Origin: an uncultured Chitinophaga sp.
GTDB lineage: Bacteria > Bacteroidota > Bacteroidia > Chitinophagales > Chitinophagaceae
Assembly (NCBI GenBank): GCA_964386395.1
Contig: CAYLRV010000001.1
Location: 23,807 to 87,806 of the forward strand
Direction of reading: 5' to 3'
Length of the DNA: 64,000 bases
The translations under genes were made by a program, and so were the position numbers. The notes beneath the pieces were generated by a model, which worked only from the letters and a program-made list of their open reading frames with translations, made no database searches and had not been told where the DNA came from. Position 1 is the stretch's first letter, and every line of letters starts with the position of its first letter. Positions 1,862-42,667 of this stretch are shown here, one piece after another.

Positions 1862-4483
1862 TTACAACTCCCTGTCACCATATTCACTAATCAGCTCTGC
1901 CACCAGGGCCGTCCATCCTGTTTGATGGCTTGCACCAATACCTTTACCGGTATCACCGTTGAAGTATTCATAAAATAATATAAGATGTTCATTGCCGGGT
2001 TGTCTATAAAACCAGTTGTACTCACCATTGAAACGGCGGTTGCCTTCCTCATCCCGCTCAAATAAACTAATCACCCGTCTCGTGAGCTCATATGCCACCT
2101 GCACCAGGTTCATTTTTACGCCTGAGCCAGTTGGATATTCCACCTGCAGATCATCACCATAGAATTCGCCGTAGTGCCGGAGCGACTGAATGATTAAAAA
2201 ATTAATCGGCATCCACATCGGCCCACGCCAGTTAGAATTACCACCAAATAAATCGGAGGTAGAATCACCCGGATCGTATTGAATAGTGTATGTTTGTCCA
2301 TCCATTCGTACGGAGTACGGATTTTGCTCATGGTATTTTGATAAGGCCCGGATACCGCTATCGGATAAGAACCCTTTTTCATCCAGCAGACGTTCGAGTA
2401 TTGAGACCAGCCTGTCTTTTGGTACTAACGATAAAAGAATTTCACCGTCCTTGCTTCGTTCTTCATTCGGCCAGAATTTATTATTCTTCAACCGGTAGTT
2501 TTCAAACCAGGTGATACGCTTTTTAAAATCAGGTAAGCTGTCCTGCCTCGCCTTGGATATGGTAGATACTGCATAGAGCGGGGCCACACCCACGATAGAC
2601 TGAATACGCAATGGTATGGGCGCAGCACCTGTCACACAAAGCACATCATAAAAGAACCGGTCTTCCTCATTCCACAAACCATGCTCATTGAGCGACTCGG
2701 CTATCAATACAAAGTGTTCAAAAAATTTAGTGGCTGTATCCTCAAAGGATTCATCGTGAATGGCAATTTCAATCGCCATATCCATCATATCAAGTGCGAA
2801 AGCACCCATCCAACTGGTGCCATCGGCCTGCTCCAGTTGTACTTCGCCAGTAAAGTGAAGGCTGCGGTTAAATACCCCGATATTATCCAGGCCAAGGAAA
2901 CCTCCCTCAAAAATGTTGTTGCCGTTTTTATCTTTCCGGTTTATCCACCAGGTAAAGTTGATAAGCAGCTTATGAAATACTTTCTTCAAAAAATTTATAT
3001 CACCGGAACCGCTTCTTCTTTTTTCAATCTGGTACACCTGCATTGCCGCCCATGCCTGTACCGGCGGGTTTACATCGCTGAAATTCCATTCATACGAGGG
3101 TAGTTGACCATCTGGCTTCATATACCATTCCCGCATAAGCAATAGTAACTGGTGTTTGGCAAAAGTGGGGTCTGCCACGGCCATTGAAATACACTGGAAA
3201 GCGAGATCCCAGGCCGCATACCAGGGATACTCCCATTTATCCGGCATCATAATGATGTCCTGGTTCTTCAGGTGCTGCCAGTCATTGTTGCGGCCTTTTT
3301 GTTTGCCCGGGTTTACCGGGGTGATTCCATCGCTTTTACCTATCCAGCGTTCCACATCAAAATGGTAAAACTGTTTGCTCCATAACATACCGGCCAATGC
3401 CTGGCGTTGTATACGTGCCACATCCTCATTCATTCCCTTTGGGAGAATAGCCGCATAATATTCATCCGCTTCTTGTTTGCGAAGTGTGAATACATCTTTC
3501 ACAATTTTTCCAAACGGCGCATCAAACAGTTCTGTACTGAGGCGGCAATAAATTGTTTTGGTAGCGCCACCGGCAATTTTCATTTTATATACCGGCGAAA
3601 ACTTAGTGCCCTTTTTTCGGGCGGCCAGCTCTTTTATATTCTTTCCTTCTATCACAGCATCATGAAAAGCGTCCTTTACAAAAATGTCTGCATTGGGTTG
3701 CCCGAGTATTTTTTCGTTGTTGGTTCGGTTATCGGTAAACAAGCAATTGTCTGCTGCCTGAAAATAGAAATAGTAATCACCAAGCCGTTCATGCTCCGCC
3801 CGTACCGTTGTTTTATCAATAAATTCAATACAAGGAAATTTTTTAAAGGCCTGGTAACTTTGCCTGTTATAAAACCAAAGGGTTGGCAGCACCGTTATTT
3901 CCGCTGCTTCTGTGTAGCGGTTGGTGATATCTATTTTGATAAAAATATCCTGCGCACTGTGTTTTGCATACGTAATCTGCACATCAAAATACTGGTTGTT
4001 ATCAAACACACCGGTATCTAATATTTCATACTCCGGCTCCAGCCTGTTGCGCTTCTTATTTTCGTCTTTCAGTTTTTGATAGGGAAATTCCTGCTGCGGG
4101 TATTTATATAAATACTCCATGTAGTAATGCGTGGGCAGGTTATCCAGGTAGTAGTATAGTTCTTTTACATCTTCTCCATGATTGCCCTGTGGATTGCTTA
4201 AACCAAAAAGCCTTTCCTTCAGAATTGGATCTTTACCATTCCATAAGGCCACTGCAAAACAGAGATTGCCAAAATAGTCGGTAATACCACCCAGGCCATC
4301 TTCGCCCCAGAGATAGCTGCGGCTATGGGCATGATCAAAAGGAAAATAATTCCAGGCATCTCCCCATTCCCCATAGTCTTCCCGCACGGTGCCCCATTGC
4401 CGTTCACTCAGGTAAGGCCCCCATTGCGCCAATGGAATTTCTTTGGTGGCGTTTACTGCCAGCCGTTGGTGTTCTGCTGTCAT
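1862..4483 (-). CDS. GH63-like / MGH1-like glycoside hydrolase
   Basis: 873-aa ORF. The size and W/Y-rich motifs (GGFLGLDNIGVFNRS, WRGPMWMPINF) recall YgjK / mannosylglycerate-hydrolase-type enzymes. The call rests on recollection of the family only. Confidence 0.5.
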   Translation of the reverse strand: MTAEHQRLAVNATKEIPLAQWGPYLSERQWGTVREDYGEWGDAWNYFPFDHAHSRSYLWGEDGLGGITDYFGNLCFAVALWNGKDPILKERLFGLSNPQGNHGEDVKELYYYLDNLPTHYYMEYLYKYPQQEFPYQKLKDENKKRNRLEPEYEILDTGVFDNNQYFDVQITYAKHSAQDIFIKIDITNRYTEAAEITVLPTLWFYNRQSYQAFKKFPCIEFIDKTTVRAEHERLGDYYFYFQAADNCLFTDNRTNNEKILGQPNADIFVKDAFHDAVIEGKNIKELAARKKGTKFSPVYKMKIAGGATKTIYCRLSTELFDAPFGKIVKDVFTLRKQEADEYYAAILPKGMNEDVARIQRQALAGMLWSKQFYHFDVERWIGKSDGITPVNPGKQKGRNNDWQHLKNQDIIMMPDKWEYPWYAAWDLAFQCISMAVADPTFAKHQLLLLMREWYMKPDGQLPSYEWNFSDVNPPVQAWAAMQVYQIEKRRSGSGDINFLKKVFHKLLINFTWWINRKDKNGNNIFEGGFLGLDNIGVFNRSLHFTGEVQLEQADGTSWMGAFALDMMDMAIEIAIHDESFEDTATKFFEHFVLIAESLNEHGLWNEEDRFFYDVLCVTGAAPIPLRIQSIVGVAPLYAVSTISKARQDSLPDFKKRITWFENYRLKNNKFWPNEERSKDGEILLSLVPKDRLVSILERLLDEKGFLSDSGIRALSKYHEQNPYSVRMDGQTYTIQYDPGDSTSDLFGGNSNWRGPMWMPINFLIIQSLRHYGEFYGDDLQVEYPTGSGVKMNLVQVAYELTRRVISLFERDEEGNRRFNGEYNWFYRQPGNEHLILFYEYFNGDTGKGIGASHQTGWTALVAELISEYGDREL

Positions 4484-32839: not shown

Positions 32840-33020
32840 CTTTGATACAAGCATCCTAAGTGCTTTGCGTTTACCATTTCCGCCATTTCCCCTTTAGAGG
32901 GAAAGCGGGATTCGAACCCGCATATTGTCTGTTGCTCTGTCCACTAAGCTACCGGGCCCATTGCCCGGATGGGATTCGAACCCATGACCCACAGGTTGTG
33001 GTGATATATGTATCAGTGAA
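32840..33020 (-). ncRNA. Structured RNA with two tandem, circularly permuted tRNA-like modules (YrlA / Y-RNA-like)
   Basis: Minus-sense order is: GATAC ATAT [ATCACCACAA] CCTGT GGGTC; T-arm1 ATGGG-TTCGAAT-CCCAT (32969-32985); loop-closed acceptor hairpin CCGGGC-AATGG-GCCCGG; TA; D-arm1 GCTT-AGTGGACA-GAGC; A; ACAG ACA ATAT G; T-arm2 GCGGG-TTCGAAT-CCCGC (32905-32921); hairpin TTTCCCT-CTAAA-GGGGAAA; TG; D-arm2; anticodon-like arm AAGCA-CTTAGGA-TGCTT; GTATC. The outer segments GATAC/GTATC, ATAT/ATAT and CCTGT/ACAG are complementary. The ends of the RNA are uncertain. Confidence 0.5.
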
Positions 33021-34240: not shown

Positions 34241-34341
34241 TGTCTTACATTTTAGCTGTTCCGTTGCCGGTAACAGTGTTCCTATTAATTTTTCGTTCCT
34301 TTCCTAATCTCCCGCCCGCAGGCAGGAGACCGAAAAGGTTG

Positions 34342-34848
34342 TTACTGTACCACTTTATTTGCACAGCTGGAGCTGGCAAAAGCTTCCGGTTTAGCCTTGA
34401 AAGCAAAACCCCTGCCTGTCCGGCAGGCAGGCATTCCCATGATATAGCCCATAGCTTCCTTCAGGGCATCGTTACTTTTAAAGTTTGGGTTGGTGTTGAT
34501 GTCCGCATGCACTTCCATATCCACACTGTAGCGGCTGAATATGTTGCACAGTGCATAGGCTACTTCGATACTTTTCTGTACTTCCATCAACATCCGTTCT
34601 TTAATCGTCATACGCTGGCGGGTTGTTTCATTATGGATATACATGAAACCACCTTTCCCTTTCCGGATGAATACGATTACCGTGGCAAACTCAGTCACCC
34701 TGGCTTTCACCTGGCTATCGGTACCAATGCAGACTTTCAATTCATGTCCATTCTCTTTTTCCTGCATCAATACACGGCTTACCTCTTCCGCAATCGGGAT
34801 TTGAATCCGTTCACCGGTCAATTTTCTCCATTGTTGTTCCTGTTCCAT
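34342..34848 (-). CDS. YkuK/DUF458-family RNase-H-like protein
   Basis: 168 aa. KVCIGTDSQ, FATVIVFIRKGKGGF and KPEAFASS resemble the DUF458 family. Carries the 21-nt palindrome in frame at 34411-34431. The start codon lies 30 nt downstream (minus sense) of the last tRNA-like element. Confidence 0.55.
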   Translation of the reverse strand: MEQEQQWRKLTGERIQIPIAEEVSRVLMQEKENGHELKVCIGTDSQVKARVTEFATVIVFIRKGKGGFMYIHNETTRQRMTIKERMLMEVQKSIEVAYALCNIFSRYSVDMEVHADINTNPNFKSNDALKEAMGYIMGMPACRTGRGFAFKAKPEAFASSSCANKVVQ

Positions 34849-34943: not shown

Positions 34944-34950
34944 CTTTTGT

Positions 34951-35022
34951 GGACAAAACAGGATTCGAACCTGTACTGCTGCGGCTTCAACGCAGTGCTC
35001 TGCCATTGGAGCTATTTGTCCT
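34951..35022 (-). tRNA. tRNA-Phe(GAA)
   Basis: GGACAAA TA GCTC-CAATGGCA-GAGC A CTGCG-TTGAAGC-CGCAG CAGT ACAGG-TTCGAAT-CCTGT TTTGTCC A. A fully canonical cloverleaf with no encoded CCA. Confidence 0.9.
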
Positions 35023-35116
35023 TTTGTTTGTACCTGCACTGGCTGATCTTTTACACTTCATCACCGAATTGTGTTGCACAAACTCTGTCTTCCCGCCATA
35101 GCGGAATTATCATTGC

Positions 35117-35204
35117 GGAGAGTAAAGGATTCGAACCTTTGTACCGTTGTGAACGACAGCCCAAGCTTAGCAGGCTGGCACATTACCACTCTGTCAACCC
35201 TCCT
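35117..35204 (-). tRNA. tRNA-Ser(GCU), class II
   Basis: GGAGGGT TG ACA-GAGTGGTAA-TGT G CCAGC-CTGCTAA-GCTTG, long variable arm GTCGTT-CAC-AACGGT, AAAGG-TTCGAAT-CCTTT ACTCTCC G. There is one C.U mismatch in the anticodon stem. Confidence 0.75.
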
Positions 35205-35208
35205 TTGT

Positions 35209-35292
35209 GTGATTAATAAGATTCGAACTTATTCAGCCCGAAGGCAACGGTTTTACAGACCGTTACGACTCTCCGTCTTCGTCGTACTCACC
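35209..35292 (-). tRNA. tRNA-Tyr(GUA), class II
   Basis: GTGAGTA CG ACGA-AGACGGAGAG-TCGT A ACGGT-CTGTAAA-ACCGT, variable arm GCC-TTCG-GGC, ATAAG-TTCGAAT-CTTAT TAATCAC A. Has C8 instead of U8 and one G.A mismatch in the acceptor. Confidence 0.8.
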
Positions 35293-35303
35293 AAAATTTC
35301 AGC

Positions 35304-35380
35304 GGATGAAGAAAGGGTCGAACTTTCAACCATCGGCTTAACATCCGCCACTGGCGGACTGCCATTGAGCTATTCATCCA
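35304..35380 (-). ncRNA. tRNA-like element E (perfect acceptor and T-arm, non-canonical core)
   Basis: GGATGAA TA GCTC AATGGCAG [TCCGCC-AGT-GGCGGA] TGTTAAGCCGATGGTT GAAAG-TTCGACC-CTTTC TTCATCC G. It has no D-stem partner and no 5-bp stem with a 7-nt anticodon loop. ATGTTAA could be a GUU (Asn) loop only with a poor stem. Confidence 0.4.
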
Positions 35381-35384
35381 TTGT

Positions 35385-35458
35385 TGTCCCGGTGAGATTC
35401 GAACTCACAACCCCCCGGTTAAAAGCCGGGTACATCTTCCAGTTGAGCTACGAGACAT
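35385..35458 (-). tRNA. tRNA-Lys(UUU) with a weak D-stem
   Basis: TGTCTCG TA GCTC-AACTGGAA-GATG TA CCCGG-CTTTTAA-CCGGG GGGTT GTGAG-TTCGAAT-CTCAC CGGGACA A. U1-A72 pair. Only 2 of 4 D-stem pairs form. Confidence 0.65.
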
Positions 35459-35464
35459 TTTTGT

Positions 35465-35556
35465 TGCGGCTACCGGATTCACTGTCTGCCGACAGGCAGG
35501 GAACCAGTAACTCCTGCCATGTAAAAACAGCTTTCTCCCATTGAATTAAGCCGCAC
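35465..35556 (-). tRNA. tRNA-Val(UAC)-like with a 20-nt T-loop insertion
   Basis: TGCGGCT TA ATTC-AATGGGA-GAAA G CTGTT-TTTACAT-GGCAG GAGTT ACTGG-TTC[CCTGCCTGTCGGCAGACAGT]GAAT-CCGGT AGCCGCA A. The insertion occupies plus 35482-35501. Confidence 0.6.
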
Positions 35557-35573
35557 TGCTTCATAAGGTTTGT

Positions 35574-35645
35574 GATGGTTGACAGATTCGAACTGTCAGC
35601 CGCTATCGTATCAGGATAGTACTCTGCCATTGAGTTAAACCATCA
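35574..35645 (-). tRNA. tRNA-Ile(GAU)
   Basis: GATGGTT TA ACTC-AATGGCA-GAGT A CTATC-CTGATAC-GATAG CGGCT GACAG-TTCGAAT-CTGTC AACCATC A. Canonical cloverleaf. Confidence 0.9.
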
Positions 35646-35649
35646 TTGT

Positions 35650-35721
35650 TGCGGCTGCCAGATTCGAACCAGCATTTGAAGCTTATGAGACTTCTGAGTT
35701 AGCCATTACGCTAAACCGCAA
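35650..35721 (-). tRNA. tRNA with CAU anticodon (Met or Ile2; cannot be distinguished here)
   Basis: TGCGGTT TA GCGT-AATGGCTA-ACTC A GAAGT-CTCATAA-GCTTC AAAT GCTGG-TTCGAAT-CTGGC AGCCGCA A. One D-stem mismatch and a G.U-rich T-stem. Confidence 0.7.
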
Positions 35722-35730
35722 TTAATATGT

Positions 35731-35804
35731 AAGCCTGGTGAGAATCGAACTCACACTACATGGCTTCTAAGGCCATTGCCTCTCCCAATTGGGCTACAAG
35801 CTTA
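35731..35804 (-). tRNA. tRNA with Leu anticodon UAG on a class I (short variable loop) body
   Basis: AAGCTTG TA GCCC-AATTGGGAG-AGGC A ATGGC-CTTAGAA-GCCAT GTAGT GTGAG-TTCGATT-CTCAC CAGGCTT A. Confidence 0.7.
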
Positions 35805-35814
35805 TTTCATTTGT

Positions 35815-35887
35815 CGGCCAGACTGGATTCGAACCAGTAACCTTTTGCGTATAAGGCAACTGCTCACACCGTTGAGCTACAGGCCGC
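35815..35887 (-). tRNA. tRNA-Ile(UAU)
   Basis: CGGCCTG TA GCTC-AACGGTGT-GAGC A GTTGC-CTTATAC-GCAAA AGGTT ACTGG-TTCGAAT-CCAGT CTGGCCG A. One U.U mismatch in the acceptor. Confidence 0.8.
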
Positions 35888-35895
35888 TTGTTTGC

Positions 35896-35988
35896 TGACT
35901 CAGAAAGATTCCCTGCCAGTCGGCAGACAGGGAACTTTCATCTCCTCATTCGTAGTGAGGTGTTCTTCTCCATTGAACTATAAGTCAT
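35896..35988 (-). tRNA. tRNA-Arg(ACG) with a 20-nt T-loop insertion
   Basis: TGACTTA TA GTTC-AATGGAGAA-GAAC A CCTCA-CTACGAA-TGAGG AGAT GAAAG-TTC[CCTGTCTGCCGACTGGCAGG]GAAT-CTTTC TGAGTCA G. The insertion occupies plus 35913-35932. All four stems are otherwise good. Confidence 0.7.
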
Positions 35989-35993
35989 CATTG

Positions 35994-36110
35994 TACGGCT
36001 TCAGGAATTCCTGCCTGGCCGGCAGCCAGGGAACCTCTGCAACGATCACCTGCTATTTTCCTCTCAGAAAGAAAGGGAGGTGATTATGTTTCCATTACAA
36101 CAAGCCGTAT
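35994..36110 (-). tRNA. Aberrant tRNA-like gene (possible Gln-CUG) with a T-loop insertion and an elongated anticodon arm
   Basis: Acceptor ACGGCTT/AAGCCGT (or TACGGCT/AGCCGTA). Outer stem CACCT/AGGTG encloses CCC TTTCT-TTCTGAG-AGGAA AATAGC. T-loop TTC[CCTGGCTGCCGGCCAGGCAG]GAAT (insertion at plus 36012-36031). The T-stem is weak. Confidence 0.4.
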
Positions 36111-36113
36111 TGG

Positions 36114-36186
36114 GTGCACTGCGGGGCTCGAACCCTGTTCTCCCGATGCACAGTCGGGCACTTTACCAAATAAGCTACAGCCACCA
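36114..36186 (-). tRNA. tRNA-His(GUG) with encoded G-1
   Basis: G(-1) GTGGCTG TA GCTT-ATTTGGTA-AAGT G CCCGA-CTGTGCA-TCGGG AGAA CAGGG-TTCGAGC-CCC.. CAGTGCAC C. G-1 lies opposite C73. The 3' acceptor strand has TG where C is expected, giving a 1x2 internal loop. Confidence 0.7.
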
Positions 36187-36191
36187 TCTGT

Positions 36192-36283
36192 TACCCGGCT
36201 CAGACTCCCTGTCTGCTGACAGGCAGGGAACTGAGAATACCAGACTCAAATTCTGGTGTGTTGCCAATTACACCACCCGGTAA
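36192..36283 (-). tRNA. tRNA-Gln(UUG) with a 20-nt T-loop insertion
   Basis: TACCGGG TG GTGT-AATTGGCA-ACAC A CCAGA-ATTTGAG-TCTGG TATT CTCAG-TTC[CCTGCCTGTCAGCAGACAGG]GAGT-CTGAG CCGGGTA A. The insertion occupies plus 36209-36228. Confidence 0.7.
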
Positions 36284-36287
36284 TCGT

Positions 36288-36335
36288 GCAGCATGAGTGA
36301 ATCCCTGTCTGCAGACTGGAAGTGAACATGCAGCC
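36288..36335 (-). ncRNA. Acceptor-stem-like hairpin enclosing a short copy of the palindrome, flanked by AGTGAA direct repeats
   Basis: gcagcatg (36289-36296) pairs with catgcagc (36328-36335) with one mismatch. The interior is agtgaa-tccctgtctgcagactgg-aagtgaa. The 3' side is followed by CGAT, like the CAAT trailers of the array. Confidence 0.3.
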
Positions 36336-36593: not shown

Positions 36594-36712
36594 AGCTACC
36601 TCCTTTCTATTAACTGCATTTTTTATTTCCGCACTCTTCACCAATTGATTTCCTAACACTTCAACGACGGGAAATCTTTGTGGCAACCCACCTTCGCCAA
36701 AGCTTCGGTGGG

Positions 36713-36749
36713 TAAATAAAAAAACCCGGTCGTTTTTAGCGACCGGGTT
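36713..36749 (-). terminator. Rho-independent terminator (minus strand)
   Basis: aacccggtcg-tttttag-cgaccgggtt hairpin (36723-36749). In minus sense it is followed by TTTTTTTATTT. Confidence 0.75.
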
Positions 36750-37080
36750 TCCTGGCAAGCACAATTGTACTTACCTATGGATTGTCCGGTCGCCGATGGT
36801 GATCATTCTCATTACCTATGGGCACAATACTCCTGTTCGCTTGCGCAGAGCAATAGCATATGGCTGATAGTTGATCATTCATCGTTTGACTAAATCGTTT
36901 ATGTCGTAATAGTTTCAGCATTCTTTATTTTTCGGTTACAATAGATTCAAAACTTTTCCGATTACATAACTATTTTTCTTGTCCACTTACACTGAAGCTT
37001 GGGATTATCGCTTTCGCTTGCGCTGTGGGTAACACTTCTTCGCCGGCGGGTAACCCACCTTCGCTAAAGCTACGGTGGGT

Positions 37081-37109
37081 AAATAAAAAGCCCCGACGTT
37101 TGCCGGGGC
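37081..37109 (-). terminator. Rho-independent terminator after the Dabb gene (minus strand)
   Basis: gccccg-acgtttgc-cggggc hairpin. In minus sense it is followed by TTTTTATTT. Confidence 0.7.
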
Positions 37110-37331
37110 CTGTATTTCATTGAATTCGTTAGTATAACTTATCCTGGCAAAATACATGCCCCACAAACAGTGTAGTCTCCCTTGGGACTAAACCAATTCG
37201 CTGATTCAATATGTAATTTTATGCGTAGCATGTTTTTGTTTTGCAGTGCAAAGATGAATTTATTTTTTTGATGTTGCCAAATTTTTCTTGAAGAATTTTT
37301 AAAAATTATTTTTTTGCGCACAATTCCTATT

Positions 37332-38929: not shown

Positions 38930-39482
38930 ATTATTTTGAACCACGGAGACACAAGGACAGGGAGATGCACAGATATACACATACTGCCGGGAGACAGTCA
39001 CGGTGAGCTGGCGACAGGGAGAAGCACAAAAGCCGTGCTTATTTTTAAAGAATCATCCTTTTAATGCCATCTTTCATAAGCGGTGCGTGAAAATTTAATA
39101 CATAGCCAAGCCGCTTTTGTGTAAGGCGCAGGTAACTTAATAGCTGGGCATCCCAAACGGGATGATAGTTATCCTGCGCTTTCAATTCAACAATTATTAA
39201 ATTGTCAATCAATATATCAATCCGAAGACCATCACTAATGATCAATTTATCGTATACCAGTTCTACATTTTTTTGAACAACAAACGGAATATCCCTTTTG
39301 GTCAATTCATAACAGAAGCATTTTTCATACACACTTTCAATTAAGCCCGGACCGAGAAACCTATGGATCTTTATAGCAATATCCATTATTTGATATGTCA
39401 GCCATATTTCCCTTTCGGTTAAAGGTTTATGCTTTTTTTCTGTGCCGCTCCGTGCCGTCATGCCGCTGTGGTTCAAAATATA
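38930..39482. mobile_element. GxxExxY gene cassette bounded by GAACCAC...GTGGTTC inverted repeats
   Basis: Left arm gaaccacggagacacaaggacaggg (about 38937). Right arm ...ccgtcatgccgctgtggttc (about 39455-39474). The gene sits between them. Confidence 0.5.
39045..39461 (-). CDS. GxxExxY protein (PD-(D/E)XK-like family)
   Basis: Eponymous motif GPGLIESVYEKC (G-x-x-E-x-x-Y). The likely start is ATG 39461. Confidence 0.8.
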   Translation of the reverse strand: MTARSGTEKKHKPLTEREIWLTYQIMDIAIKIHRFLGPGLIESVYEKCFCYELTKRDIPFVVQKNVELVYDKLIISDGLRIDILIDNLIIVELKAQDNYHPVWDAQLLSYLRLTQKRLGYVLNFHAPLMKDGIKRMIL

Positions 39483-39483
39483 A

Positions 39484-40095
39484 TCAGAATAACTCCCCCT
39501 GCTTCGTTGCAACCGGCAGGTTCTGGAATTGGAATGTTGCTGCAATACGATATTTCATTTCCCCCACCGGCCGTTTGAGCAAAGTCATGCCATCAGCAAT
39601 AAACCGACCGGTAAAATGCTTTTGACTATACTCCAGCCAGCCCTTTTCATACTGCCAGGGCTTTAATTTCCGGGCAATGGTCAGGTGGGGCTCCATGATA
39701 AAATGCGGTTTATTATCCTCGTTCAGTTTCATCAGGCGCTGGCTTTCTGTACGGATGCTTTTTACCAGGCCTTGTACCGGTAATTTGCTGGTTACATTGA
39801 TATAAATAGTATGCGCCGGAAAACTGCCAAAATCTTTCAGCTCCACTTTAAATGGCGGGAAGCCCATGGCCACATTCCGCAGCCGGTTTAGTATCCGTTC
39901 TTCCAGCATGGCATGCTGCACAAAATTGACCAGCGTAATATGCGGCTTGCCCCATCTTGCATGATCCGATTTGTACGCAGTAGCAAAATCCTCCTTCACT
40001 TTCATTATCCTTTTCCATAGCTCTTCGTGCGGACTAAGCACCAATAAGTACTCATATTCCCGGTAGCCCGGGATCGTGTTGATAATACTTTCCAT
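39484..40095 (-). CDS. 2H-phosphoesterase superfamily protein (LigT / ThpR-like 2'-5' RNA ligase family)
   Basis: Two HxT motifs at the expected spacing: KPHITLVNF and EPHLTIARK. Confidence 0.7.
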   Translation of the reverse strand: MESIINTIPGYREYEYLLVLSPHEELWKRIMKVKEDFATAYKSDHARWGKPHITLVNFVQHAMLEERILNRLRNVAMGFPPFKVELKDFGSFPAHTIYINVTSKLPVQGLVKSIRTESQRLMKLNEDNKPHFIMEPHLTIARKLKPWQYEKGWLEYSQKHFTGRFIADGMTLLKRPVGEMKYRIAATFQFQNLPVATKQGELF

Positions 40096-40247: not shown

Positions 40248-40685
40248 ATGGACGGAGAAGATTTTTTTGGGGCCGCATATAAGGGCTCAAAGCAGTTCAA
40301 GCAACAGGAAGTAAAAACAGCGAACGCCACCGGCTTTGGCGCTGCCGCCGATGATTATATGGAACGGGGTATTGATTTGAATGAGCAACTGATACGAAAC
40401 AAGCCCGCCACCTTCTTCTTCCGCATGAAAGGCGACGCTATGCAGGAAGCAGGTATTTTTGACGGCGATACGCTTATTGTAGATCGCTCTATAAAACTGG
40501 CTAACGGAAAAATAATCGTAGCCATTCTTAACGGAGAATTACTGGTACGCCGGTTCCATAAAAACTTTTCTTCCGCTTTCCTGATTGCCGAAAACAACCG
40601 GTATAAAAATATCAACCTGGCCGAGTTCAGCAACTTCGCTGTGTGGGGGGTGGTGACGTATACGATACACCCCGTCGGCGGTTGA
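40248..40685 (+). CDS. umuD: UmuD-like S24-family protein lacking the Ser/Lys catalytic dyad
   Basis: Collinear with E. coli UmuD (DYMERGIDLNEQLI..., DGDTLIVDRS...). GDSM is replaced by GDAM, and the TVKK lysine region reads LVRR. Confidence 0.7.
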   Translation: MDGEDFFGAAYKGSKQFKQQEVKTANATGFGAAADDYMERGIDLNEQLIRNKPATFFFRMKGDAMQEAGIFDGDTLIVDRSIKLANGKIIVAILNGELLVRRFHKNFSSAFLIAENNRYKNINLAEFSNFAVWGVVTYTIHPVGG

Positions 40686-41371
40686 AAACCCGGCGGGGTT
40701 CGCTTACTAATAAAATTAATTTGTATGGATATTCAACCGATAATCGAAGGCCAGTACTTCCATATTTACAATCGTGGTGTAAACAGCGAAGATATTTTTA
40801 AAGAAAAAAAGAATTACTACTATTTTCTTAAACAGTACAGCTTTTATTGCAATACGGTACTGGATACACTGGCGTATTGCTTATTGAAAAATCATTTTCA
40901 TTTACTCGTGTATGTCAAAGAAAATGTGGAAGTACCCCGCACTGACGGAAAAGAAGGCAGCTTTCGTCTGCATGCATCCAAACAACTGGGGCATTTTTTC
41001 AACTCCTACGCCCAATCCATCAATAAGGCCTATAAACGTACGGGACAACTTTTCGAATCCCCGTTTGAAAGAAAACTGGTGGACGATGAAAGTTATATGA
41101 TGTCCCTGATCTATTACTGTAATCAAAACGCCGTACATCATGGCTTCGTTAAGAGCACAAATGACTGGGAATTTTCTTCCTACCACGCTGTAATAAAAAA
41201 CGATAAAAGCCTTGTGGCTGTAGACCAGGTACTAAAGCGATTTGGCGATATTCAGCGATTTAAAGAAGCGCATACAACTAATAGCATAAAAGAAAAAGAG
41301 CAACAATATATTATAGACTATTAATCACTCTCCTATTTTAAACTACCGTCGGGGCCTACAGCCGCCGACGG
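40672..41371 (+). mobile_element. Y1-transposase-like cassette inserted between umuD and umuC, bounded by a 13-bp inverted repeat
   Basis: accccgtcggcgg (about 40669-40681, overlapping the umuD stop) versus ccgccgacggagt (41362-41374). 12 of 13 positions are complementary. Confidence 0.5.
40725..41324 (+). CDS. IS200/RAYT-like Y1 (HUH) transposase-family protein
   Basis: YFHIYNRG, the HUH-like NHFHLLV motif, and the C-terminal tyrosine helix LIYYCNQNAVHHGFV. Confidence 0.65.
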   Translation: MDIQPIIEGQYFHIYNRGVNSEDIFKEKKNYYYFLKQYSFYCNTVLDTLAYCLLKNHFHLLVYVKENVEVPRTDGKEGSFRLHASKQLGHFFNSYAQSINKAYKRTGQLFESPFERKLVDDESYMMSLIYYCNQNAVHHGFVKSTNDWEFSSYHAVIKNDKSLVAVDQVLKRFGDIQRFKEAHTTNSIKEKEQQYIIDY

Positions 41372-41383
41372 AGTTTGCCGAAG

Positions 41384-42667
41384 ATGATGAAAGCAATCGT
41401 TGACTGTAATAACTTCTACTGTTCCTGCGAAAGGTTGTTTAAACCGGCGCTGGAGAATAAACCCGTTGTTGTACTGAGCAACAATGACGGCTGCATCATT
41501 TCACGCAGTAACGAAGCAAAAAAACTGGGCGTTGAAATGGCCGGGCCCTTCTTTATGGCCAGGCCCCTGATTAAAAAATATGATGTCGCTGTTTTCTCGT
41601 CTAATTACAATTTGTATGGCGACCTGAGCTGGCGGGTAATGGAAACCCTGCGGATACTATTGGGGGAAAATAATGTAGAAGTTTATTCGGTAGATGAAGC
41701 CTTCCTTGATCTGGATATTTTTCCGGTGAATGATCTGCAGGCCATCGGAGAAAAAATAAAAACCACAGTTGAAATGTGGACAGGTATTAAAGTATCTGTT
41801 GGTGTGGCTCCTACCAAGGTATTGGCCAAAGCAGCTAACCGCCTTGCAAAAAAGAACCCGGAGAAATACCAGGGCGTAATGGTGCTGCACAATGAAGAAG
41901 AAATTATATCGGCACTGCGGCAAACACAAATAGACGATATATGGGGTGTGGGCAGGCAGTATGCCCAGAAACTGAAAGAGCAGTATTGCATTTATGACGC
42001 CCTGCAGTTAAGCCGGATGAGTGAAGAGTTTGGAAGAACACAGTTAGGCGGTGTCACCGGCGTCCGCCTCCTGAAAGAACTGAAAGGAGAACCTGCGAAA
42101 GATATGGAAGATGAACTGGTGGTAAAAAAAATGATTGCCACTACCCGTATGTTCGGCAGCCCTGTGGGCGATATCGCATCTATCAAAGAAGCCGTAGCCA
42201 CTTATGCATCGAGGGCCGCTGAAAAATTAAGAAGGCAACATAGTGCGGCAAAAGTGATCAATGTCTTTGTCGTAACCAAAGAGGAGAACCACAATGTAGA
42301 TTTCCGGGGCGCCACCAACGGAACGTCCGTTATACTGCCCGCTGCTACGTCCGCTACCAATGAACTGATAAAACCGGCGGTGGCACTGGTTGACAAGTTA
42401 TTTGAAGCAGGAAAACTATATAAAAAAGCAGGCGTAATGCTGAGTGGCATTGTGCCAGACAACTCTATACAGGGTAATCTCTTTCTCCCCGGCACCAAAA
42501 ACTGCGAACGAAAACTGATGGACATGATTGATAACGTCAACTTCAGCCAGCGGGATGATGTTTTAAAATTTGCGGCCAGCGGTACTACCCGCAACTGGAA
42601 GATGCAGCAGAATTTTATCAGCGATCGTTATACCAGCCGTTGGAATGAATTGTATGAAGTAAGCTGA
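41384..42667 (+). CDS. umuC: Y-family DNA polymerase (UmuC, Pol V catalytic subunit)
   Basis: MMKAIVDCNNFYCSCE..., SNNDGC, YSVDEAFLD, KVLAK. The ORF-track start at 41375 is a TTG, so ATG 41384 or 41387 is more likely. Confidence 0.85.
   Translation: MMKAIVDCNNFYCSCERLFKPALENKPVVVLSNNDGCIISRSNEAKKLGVEMAGPFFMARPLIKKYDVAVFSSNYNLYGDLSWRVMETLRILLGENNVEVYSVDEAFLDLDIFPVNDLQAIGEKIKTTVEMWTGIKVSVGVAPTKVLAKAANRLAKKNPEKYQGVMVLHNEEEIISALRQTQIDDIWGVGRQYAQKLKEQYCIYDALQLSRMSEEFGRTQLGGVTGVRLLKELKGEPAKDMEDELVVKKMIATTRMFGSPVGDIASIKEAVATYASRAAEKLRRQHSAAKVINVFVVTKEENHNVDFRGATNGTSVILPAATSATNELIKPAVALVDKLFEAGKLYKKAGVMLSGIVPDNSIQGNLFLPGTKNCERKLMDMIDNVNFSQRDDVLKFAASGTTRNWKMQQNFISDRYTSRWNELYEVS

Follow-up and report, generated by a model that had tools for sequence, protein, structure and literature searches.

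An in-frame 21-nt palindrome in ykuK belongs to a miniature repeat family shared with tRNA loops, many bacterial phyla and phages

We found that a 21-nt palindrome within the ykuK gene of a Chitinophagaceae-related host is a copy of a real, non-chance, DNA-level miniature palindromic insertion, similar in concept to the Rickettsia palindromic elements (RPEs). The copy (P21) belongs to a repeat family, P, which carries no gene and whose consensus is the perfect 20-nt palindrome CCTGCCTGCCGGCAGGCAGG. Copies sit precisely at their sites with no duplication of the target, are present in some relatives and absent from others, and have kept the reading frame wherever they lie in ykuK. We consider it likely that P21 is an in-frame copy of such a miniature repeat, inserted at the DNA level and probably moved by a transposase of the HUH/Y1 class. 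All positions refer to the window, by which we mean the whole 64-kb stretch of DNA that was analysed (Table 1).

Table 1. Positions of P21, related palindromes and neighbouring genes in the window
Feature	Position	Strand	Remarks
GC-rich hairpin TCTCCCGCCCGCAGGCAGGAGA	34308..34329		directly past the ykuK stop codon; GGCAGG half in common with P
ykuK, YkuK/DUF458 RNase H-like protein, 168 aa	34342..34848	-	Pfam PF04308, E 2e-34
P21, in-frame palindrome	34411..34431	-	CCTGCCTGCCGGACAGGCAGG, encoding PACRTGR (YkuK residues 140-146); site empty in most homologues
Extra tRNA gene array	34949..36290	-	directly upstream of ykuK; 10 tRNAs above the Rfam threshold plus interrupted ones
P copy, 20 nt, T-loop 56/57 of tRNA-Val(tac)	35481..35500	-	gene ~35463-35555; rescued by excision
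P copy, 20 nt, T-loop 56/57 of tRNA-Arg(acg)	35912..35931	-	gene ~35894-35987; rescued by excision
P copy, 21 nt, T-loop region of a degenerate tRNA-like gene	36010..36030	-	excision rescues no tRNA; nearest to the coding copy
P copy, 20 nt, T-loop 56/57 of tRNA-Gln(ttg)	36208..36227	-	gene ~36190-36282; excision gives a 73-nt tRNA; cloverleaf kept in the fold, T-arm lengthened
REP-like imperfect palindrome upstream of the RAYT-like ORF	40669..40699		CCGTCGGCGG in common with 41346-41371, inverted
RAYT-like ORF, 199 aa	40725..41324	+	NCBIfam NF047646 (REP_Tyr_transpos), E 5e-12, 45.9 bits, below the cut-off of 80
REP-like imperfect palindrome downstream of the RAYT-like ORF	41346..41371		CCGTCGGCGG in common with 40669-40699, inverted

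P21 reads CCTGCCTGTCCGGCAGGCAGG / cctgcctgtccggcaggcagg on the plus strand and lies inside the minus-strand open reading frame of ykuK, where its coding-strand codons (CCT GCC TGC CGG ACA GGC AGG) place the seven residues in the protein context GYIMGM-PACRTGR-GFAFKAKPEAF. The earlier note had reported a 21-nt element within the YkuK coding sequence that encodes these residues and preserves the frame, and its coordinates and translation agree with ours. As RNA, P21 forms a hairpin (-13.8 kcal/mol) whose 8-bp stem closes a loop of 5 nt. Its sequence is that of the consensus plus one loop base. When up to three mismatches were allowed, the 21-mer had one other match in the 64-kb window, the copy at 36010-36030, which differs from it by 2 bases, and 100 dinucleotide-preserving shuffles gave none. 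The hairpin just past the stop codon may be either a decayed copy of P or a terminator.

The host protein is a clear member of PF04308 (RNaseH_like), scoring 118.9 bits against a cut-off of 25 and covering profile positions 11-143 of 145; no protein identical to it is on record. Most homologues run directly from GM to GF where PACRTGR stands. This empty configuration was observed in about 100 of the 120 closest homologues (Chitinophagaceae/Bacteroidota metagenome proteins, 80-88% identical) and in all 51 other sequences of a diverse PF04308 alignment, namely 49 representatives at 27-55% identity and 2 close homologues. In DNA, the empty site GGNATG^GGNTTYG was found in 79 of 80 orthologous metagenome loci. 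PACRTGR is a lineage-specific insertion. The earlier note had reasoned that homologues carrying the residues but not the palindrome would speak against an insertion; when DUF458 homologues were aligned, those without the palindrome also proved to be without the seven residues, so that objection falls away. At the junction, the window reads GGGAATG[CCTGCCTGCCGGACAGGCAGG]GGTTTTGC and the empty locus L005 reads GGGAATG^GGCTTTGC, with no base duplicated and none lost at GM^GF.

We further modelled the protein with AF2. The model built on the diverse alignment (pLDDT 92.9, pTM 0.88) places residues 140-146 in a loop between helix 124-138 and strand 149-153, as the least confident internal stretch; a model on a shallow alignment of close homologues, in which the pLDDT of residues 117-168 stayed under 50, was set aside in its favour. 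A sequence search for a solved structure of YkuK found none, and a search for YkuK relatives in viral contigs returned one distant match only.

The C-terminal insert is present in six lineages with identical arms, except for one C-to-T change in L278, and only the central unpaired base varies (A for Thr, G for Ala, T for Ser). Identity of the surrounding coding sequence is 76-84% overall and no more than 55-67% at third codon positions. Invariant arms amid such diverged third positions imply either a constraint on the DNA or RNA sequence or a recent lateral transfer. Selection may act on the arms as nucleic acid; alternatively, the insert may have moved between lineages or been lost precisely many times. 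A neighbour-joining (NJ) tree without support values set the window YkuK apart from the other PACRxGR proteins, with insert-free proteins as its nearest relatives; given this kind of tree and the high divergence, we do not claim independent gain.

The ykuK genes of relatives carry further in-frame palindromes, at three loop sites in all and in both orientations. At GM^GF itself, other lineages have a different, imperfect palindrome of 27 nt that forms a second family, encoding ARPDDPVGR in L002 and, in the opposite orientation, PVRPGHPGG and PVRAGHPGG in L003/L232. One codon boundary has thus received P21 and the 27-nt palindrome in both orientations, and tolerance by itself does not explain three different inserts at one place. 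After Gln5, L276 reads CAA[CCTGCCTACCGGACAGGCAGG]CAATGG, a P21 copy encoding PAYRTGR, and L003 reads CAA[TCTGTCTGTCCGGCAGGCAGG]CAATGG, a P21 copy in the other orientation encoding SVCPAGR. An additional 27-nt copy lies between Lys48 and residue 49 in L232, at a beta-turn of the AF2 model. The three sites map to a coil, this beta-turn and the helix-strand loop. Every coding copy in ykuK is either 21 nt long (the C-terminal and N-terminal sites) or 27 nt long (the second family, at two sites), whereas 20 nt is the usual length of non-coding copies, a few of which have 19, 21 or 22 nt. Such a length pattern is expected from insertion at the DNA level followed by survival of only those copies that preserve the frame in tolerant loops.

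The tRNA gene array next to ykuK is a local hotspot of P. The window holds 5-6 P-like copies, all within 34.3-36.3 kb (about 2 kb) and inside genes, and none was found in the remaining ~62 kb. ARAGORN predicted seven tRNAs on the window and three more (Gln-ttg, Arg-acg and Val-tac) after the palindromes had been cut out, each with a normal 5-bp T-stem and the T-loop TTCGAAT or TTCGAGT. Since excision yields canonical 7-nt T-loops, each insert lies precisely between nucleotides 56 and 57 (TTC^GAAT). TTCGAA is itself palindromic, so that the insert occupies the symmetry centre of the T-arm, which becomes one long hairpin; in two of the three predicted folds the rest of the cloverleaf is kept. 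In the window, divergence of the T-loop copies amounts to 2-4 bases and has left mismatches in their full-length stems. These results bear out the proposal of the earlier note that the coding sequence and tRNA T-loops harbour the same element, as removal of three 20-nt copies restores three canonical tRNAs. They also reveal a source of annotation error, namely interrupted tRNA genes that are overlooked by tRNA finders.

The array lies in a conserved island with the gene order LigT, (PD-(D/E)XK), radical SAM, Dabb, a small-RNA-like region, the tRNA array and YkuK, followed by an AAA ATPase, a Y-RNA-like element, Band_7 and RtcB. It resembles the long tRNA arrays of cyanobacteria, which have spread horizontally, are stress-induced and co-regulated with rtcB, and include some pseudogenes among their members (PMC8421152). 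Redundant tRNAs of such an array would be tolerant of insertions.

Comparison of close relatives, another check proposed in the earlier note, revealed that the palindrome is present or absent at many orthologous sites. The consensus 20-mer occurs in the arrays of relatives. In tRNA-Arg(acg), P occupies the T-loop in the window and position 9/10 in L162 and is absent from L163/L005; in tRNA-Asp it lies at 53/54 in L005 and is absent from L002; and a 19-nt copy in the D-loop of tRNA-Ile(gat) in L002 is absent from L003. At the intergenic site GAATTCGATAA^TGAGGAAA, L002, L162, L201, L208 and L211 have P, whereas L003, L005 and L163 do not. The 80 metagenome loci yielded 11 P-like copies, every one of them in the tRNA array upstream of ykuK; 8 are in T-loops (5 at 56/57 and 3 at 53/54), and 175 kb of downstream DNA from these loci contained none. 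Most related arrays hold 0-2 copies, at varying positions.

P is widely distributed beyond the island. The exact 20-mer was found in at least 120 stretches of a species-representative genome collection from many phyla, against a chance expectation that we estimate at ~0.5 for uniform composition and at no more than ~15 if every genome had 70% G+C. Among the matches listed are Patescibacteria, Omnitrophota, Bacteroidota, Planctomycetota, Proteobacteria, Chloroflexi and others, with Winogradskyella, Flagellimonas and Longitalea as cultured Bacteroidota; one of the exact copies is that of Longitalea luteola SYSU D00799. Viral DNA contains the exact P in 35 stretches, with up to 6-7 copies per contig, whereas a viral search with two composition-matched control palindromes gave no match. 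The 21-nt variants occur in 30 viral stretches, 28 of 32 copies inside open frames of at least 150 codons, a count that is no more than suggestive, as many long frames in high-GC contigs look antisense. PACRTGR also stands near the C-terminus of a phage AAA_22 ATPase and is missing from each of the 12 homologues aligned with it. Besides tRNA loops, at least two unrelated proteins contain P in frame.

Of the copies outside this lineage, several were located in the D-loop or variable loop of a tRNA, in another hairpin's loop or among 7-nt tandem repeats. The flanks of 121 copies contained no shared target or guide motif, the only trend being a mild preference for A at -1 (41%). Target-site duplication was absent at the coding and T-loop sites, and a 7-nt flanking repeat accompanied just 4 of the 121 copies. 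We rejected the idea that cross-phylum P lies mainly in tRNA genes: excision left a clean tRNA in 2 of 167 cases and a tRNA lay within 150 nt in 8 of 167, so the tRNA preference is a trait of the island and of some phages and not of the whole P family. Likewise rejected was the idea that P travels with the RNA-repair island, as tblastn of the island proteins against 155 P-bearing loci located the island in L014 only. A literature search for the exact P sequence found no paper.

Taken together, the presence and absence in relatives, the extra in-frame copies, the length filter and the spread across phyla and phages support the view favoured by the earlier note, that of a DNA-level palindrome inserted in frame and RPE-like in concept. 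Other explanations fit parts of these data. One, which we judge improbable, is that the hairpin is a functional RNA signal common to the transcripts of the tRNA array and the ykuK mRNA and read by an island factor such as RtcB, LigT or YkuK, for example as a signal for processing or stabilisation, a cleavage-and-ligation site or an internal terminator or attenuator. It would account for the concentration of copies in the island (6 in 2 kb versus 0 in 62 kb; 11 of 11 upstream of ykuK in relatives), for the two exact T-loop positions (56/57 and 53/54), for the cloverleaf kept in two of three predicted folds of interrupted tRNAs and for coding-copy arms that are invariant across six diverged lineages, bar the one C-to-T in L278. 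The hairpin followed by GGUUUUGCUU also has a terminator-like score on the mRNA strand. Moreover, the island encodes RNA-repair enzymes, and RtcB is the ligase of tRNA and HAC1/XBP1 splicing in other systems (PMC8421152 and references therein). However, the element is missing from most orthologues (79 of 80 coding sites are empty and arrays mostly hold 0-2 copies), which argues that it is not a required part of the system. The coding copies keep the frame, which would be needless if the hairpin were cut from the mRNA; the T-loop copies of the window are decayed, with 2-4 diverged bases and mismatched stems; and the 20-mer often turns up in unrelated settings, among them phyla and phages that lack the island. 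An RNA hairpin recognised by a common factor had been the secondary idea of the earlier note; it is neither needed nor supported by our data, and absence, frame and decay make it the weaker reading.

We are equally doubtful of a purely local origin without transposition, in which P would have spread by template switching during replication or by short-patch gene conversion, for instance between adjacent tRNA T-arms with a spill-over into ykuK. The clustering of copies in the tRNA array fits this idea, and so does the use of the same T-loop position within a genome (56/57 for all four window copies and for both copies of L197, 53/54 for both copies of L005). The T-arm flanks GGTTC / GAATCC offer microhomology, and both orientations at one site are consistent with flipping in place. 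On the other hand, no T-arm homology exists at the ykuK, D-loop, 9/10 and intergenic sites, and the exact 20-mer could not have reached distant phyla and phages unless the element itself had moved horizontally. Local template switching between T-arms may be an added mode that contributes to the clustering, rather than a full alternative.

Less probable still is that P is a 20-bp element of bacteria and phages which targets single-stranded loops at hairpin tips, favouring tRNA T-loops, and that the interrupted extra tRNAs of the island remain functional: the hairpin would be cut from the RNA, possibly by YkuK or another island nuclease, before the co-encoded RtcB ligase rejoined the ends. If true, the interrupted tRNAs rejoined by RtcB would be a bacterial counterpart of archaeal tRNA mini-introns. 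The mini-introns of Thermoproteales are 10-30 nt long, occur at many tRNA positions including the T-loop and show signs of transposition between tRNA genes; they form a bulge-helix-bulge motif that is cut by the endonuclease EndA. P resembles them as a short tRNA insert, in the T-loop among other places, with an RtcB ligase gene nearby. It differs in its bacterial host, in that no EndA was seen among the island genes, and in being translated when it lies in a gene; were the hairpin removed from mRNA, the frame preservation seen in every coding copy would be unexpected.

A chance match, an assembly artefact or an ordinary adaptive loop expansion that happened to be palindromic is hardly credible: short GC-rich palindromes can arise randomly and protein loops often vary in length, but none of the 100 shuffles matched, the identical insert recurs in independent assemblies from JGI, ENA and Logan, and the P family occurs at more than 150 places elsewhere against none for the control palindromes. 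Sequencing adaptors and assembly artefacts were ruled out by agreeing diverged copies, in-frame variants and independent assemblies, and the constancy of the sequence rules out P-nucleotide or de novo palindrome generation.

Insertion of a miniature DNA repeat is our preferred reading. On this reading a copy of P entered ykuK as DNA, landing precisely at the Met/Gly codon boundary of GM^GF and leaving the target unduplicated. The frame would be lost with a copy of 20 nt; with one extra loop base the coding copy is 21 nt long and so adds the seven residues PACRxGR to the helix-strand loop. Other copies entered loops of the neighbouring extra tRNAs and nearby intergenic sites, most commonly the palindromic T-arm centre TTC^GAA. 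P is tolerated because it lands in loops of proteins or RNAs, and the insert is most likely without function for the cell.

As to how P moves, we infer that it travels as a single-stranded DNA hairpin and that another locus of the genome supplies the enzyme, for which an HUH/Y1 tyrosine transposase (IS200/RAYT type) is the most plausible candidate; P also seems to prefer exposed single-stranded loops at hairpin tips. HUH/Y1 tyrosine transposases act on single-stranded DNA hairpins, and precise duplication-free insertion, the hairpin itself and a preference for single-stranded loops all fit this class. A RAYT-like ORF with an HUH (HFH) motif and YYCNQNAVHHG lies at the island edge, ~6.3 kb from P21, and an IS200-like Y1_Tnp gene occupies the same edge in L005, L006 and L014. 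The RAYT-like ORF would be the candidate mover of P. Against such a link, the ORF scores below the cut-off of its family, the palindromes that flank it differ in sequence from P, the flanks of P share no guide-like motif, and elsewhere a Y1 gene was found near P in 1 of ~155 P-bearing loci, for which 2-15 kb around P had been fetched. Free transposition is also called into question by the distribution of P in the window, where copies are confined to 2 kb rather than dispersed, and in relatives, where 11 of 11 copies lie in the arrays; such clustering is not what a freely transposing repeat would be expected to give.

Several known families invite comparison with P. RPEs, reportedly described by Ogata et al. 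in 2000, are ~100-150 bp long and confined to Rickettsia and close relatives, and to our knowledge Rickettsia is the best-known case of in-frame palindromic insertions in bacterial proteins. Like them, P adds a short in-frame peptide at a surface position and leaves the protein intact, occurs also in RNA genes and intergenic DNA and has no gene of its own; P21 likewise is an in-frame insertion in a conserved protein that is absent from orthologues. P differs from RPEs in being a perfect palindrome of 20-21 bp that occurs in many phyla and in phages and has no sequence relationship to them. It thus shares neither their length and consensus nor their restriction to Rickettsiales, the host here being Chitinophagaceae-related.

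The small dispersed repeats (SDRs) of Nostocaceae are said to have been described by Elhai et al. in 2008 (Genome Res 18:1484). Tandem heptamer repeats are among the places where SDRs occur, and several cross-phylum copies of P are similarly placed, within 7-nt tandem repeats or inside another palindrome's loop. We know of no description of in-frame coding copies or of T-loop targeting for SDRs. Three papers that cite the SDR study present SDRs as hairpin-forming repeats of 21-27 nt with precise insertion (PMC4390886, PMC5861425, PMC3116915); one of these gives SDR5 a fixed insertion position inside the HIP1 palindrome (PMC4390886), and another reports SDRs in heterocyst-forming cyanobacteria only (PMC5861425). 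P is likewise a hairpin repeat that inserts precisely with no target duplication, at 20-21 nt versus 21-27 nt. In contrast to SDRs, it is found in Bacteroidota, Patescibacteria, Planctomycetota, Proteobacteria and phages, and the host here is not a cyanobacterium. By size and insertion precision SDRs are the closest known relatives in kind, as judged from published descriptions of SDRs.

REP/REPIN elements with their RAYT transposases are gene-less palindromes of 20-40 nt with GTAG or CGTC at one end (PMC3116915, PMC3733652). P matches them in size and palindromic form (20-21 nt, 8-10 bp stem, gene-less), the window has a RAYT-like gene between inverted palindromes, and an HUH enzyme acting on single-stranded hairpins would explain duplication-free insertion. 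However, P failed three of the four REP criteria that we tested: it has no GTAG or CGTC head, and its 121 flanks have no conserved motif except A at -1; it is not extragenic, not high-copy in the window and forms no doublets; and the RAYT-like ORF is flanked by the other palindrome, CCGTCGGCGG, and not by P. Nor does P fit the MITEs, which combine terminal inverted repeats with a target-site duplication of fixed length, since its coding and T-loop sites have no duplication. The GC-clusters of yeast mitochondria and the organelle palindromes of Volvox are short GC-rich hairpin repeats that can also lie in coding and RNA genes (PMC2670323); they differ from P in being confined to organelles, in sequence and length, and in being spread through whole AT-rich genomes as opposed to one island.

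The smallest proposed mobile repeats, those of 21-27 nt, have so far come from one cyanobacterial lineage only, and P shows that the like exists in Bacteroidota. If confirmed, our reading would mean that gene-less elements barely above primer length can become very widespread, altering the loops of proteins and splitting tRNA genes, and P would provide a defined substrate for finding the enzyme that mobilises it.

Three tRNA genes of the array, the run of extra tRNA genes upstream of ykuK (YkuK/DUF458), carry a 20-nt palindrome within the T-loop. Because the palindrome splits this loop, ARAGORN did not call any of the three in the window with it in place, and Rfam matched tRNA-Arg-acg alone, partially and below threshold. 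When the palindrome was cut out, all three became canonical tRNAs. The array also holds a tRNA-like gene, within the Rfam tRNA hit at 35303-35379 (-), whose anticodon arm at 35344-35358 is the hairpin TCCGCC-AGT-GGCGGA. Its 3-nt loop leaves this gene without a usable anticodon. A similar tRNA-like gene was observed in the related locus L002 (TCCGCCAGTCGGCGGA).

Features of the window
Feature	Position	Strand	Remark
tRNA-Val-tac	35463-35555	-	palindrome between nt 56/57
tRNA-Arg-acg	35894-35987	-	palindrome between nt 56/57
tRNA-Gln-ttg	36190-36282	-	palindrome between nt 56/57
PD-(D/E)XK_3 nuclease gene	39045-39545	-	between LigT and radical SAM
RAYT-like ORF	40725-41324	+	HUH and Tyr motifs
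REP-like palindromes	40669-40699 and 41346-41371		mutually inverted, flanking RAYT-like ORF

Upstream of the array, a 28-nt hairpin, ACCCACCTTCGC(C/T)AAAGCT(T/A)CGGTGGGT, occurs twice (36686-36713 and 37053-37080), with a strong terminator-like hairpin after each copy (36725-36750 and 37088-37111); the arrangement may represent a duplicated small-RNA or leader module. Another hairpin, TCTCCCGCCCGCAGGCAGGAGA (34308-34329), is located 13 nt past the ykuK stop codon. It has the GGCAGG half of P, the perfect 20-mer palindrome, and may be either a decayed P copy or the ykuK terminator.

Between AAA ATPase and Band_7 genes, at 32927-32993 (-), Rfam gave a YrlA (Y RNA-like) match of 39 bits (E 4e-6), which is below the family's gathering score of 69. 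The locus, with this YrlA-like element and genes for RtcB, LigT and a radical SAM protein, resembles an RNA-repair island that includes a tRNA-like decoy RNA. The PD-(D/E)XK_3 nuclease gene is missing from the same place in three related loci (L003, L005 and L014) and is therefore another small insertion into the island. The RAYT-like ORF, the candidate mover of P, lies between umuD (40248-40685) and umuC (41375-42667); palindromes related to its flanking pair (GTCGGCGGTTGAAAACCC...) are found within the island of the relatives L003 (~4949) and L162 (~650).

The ykuK genes of relatives contain further in-frame palindromes (L003 5016-5036; L276; L232 about 3139-3166). After Gln5, P21, the 21-nt version of P, is present in both orientations among relatives, a 27-nt palindrome family occupies the beta-turn site at Lys48/49, and one protein, P0004, carries two P21 copies.

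In a viral contig (L160, 3914-4142), a 21-nt P variant, CCATGCCTACCGGCAGGCAGG, is repeated in tandem at least ten times up to the contig end; this run could be a real array or an assembly effect. The phage AAA_22 ATPase P0271 (L167, viral contig IMGVR_UViG_3300044606_000228) has the same PACRTGR insert as the window YkuK. Its closest homologue, P0272, has instead a 15-aa insert, TSPQPSPYKGEGANP, at another place, which looks as if it were encoded by another palindrome, CCCTCTCC...GGAGAGGG; free hairpins of this palindrome also occur at 3752-3771 of L003 and in a further locus, L086. In-frame insertion may not be confined to a single family of tiny palindromes.
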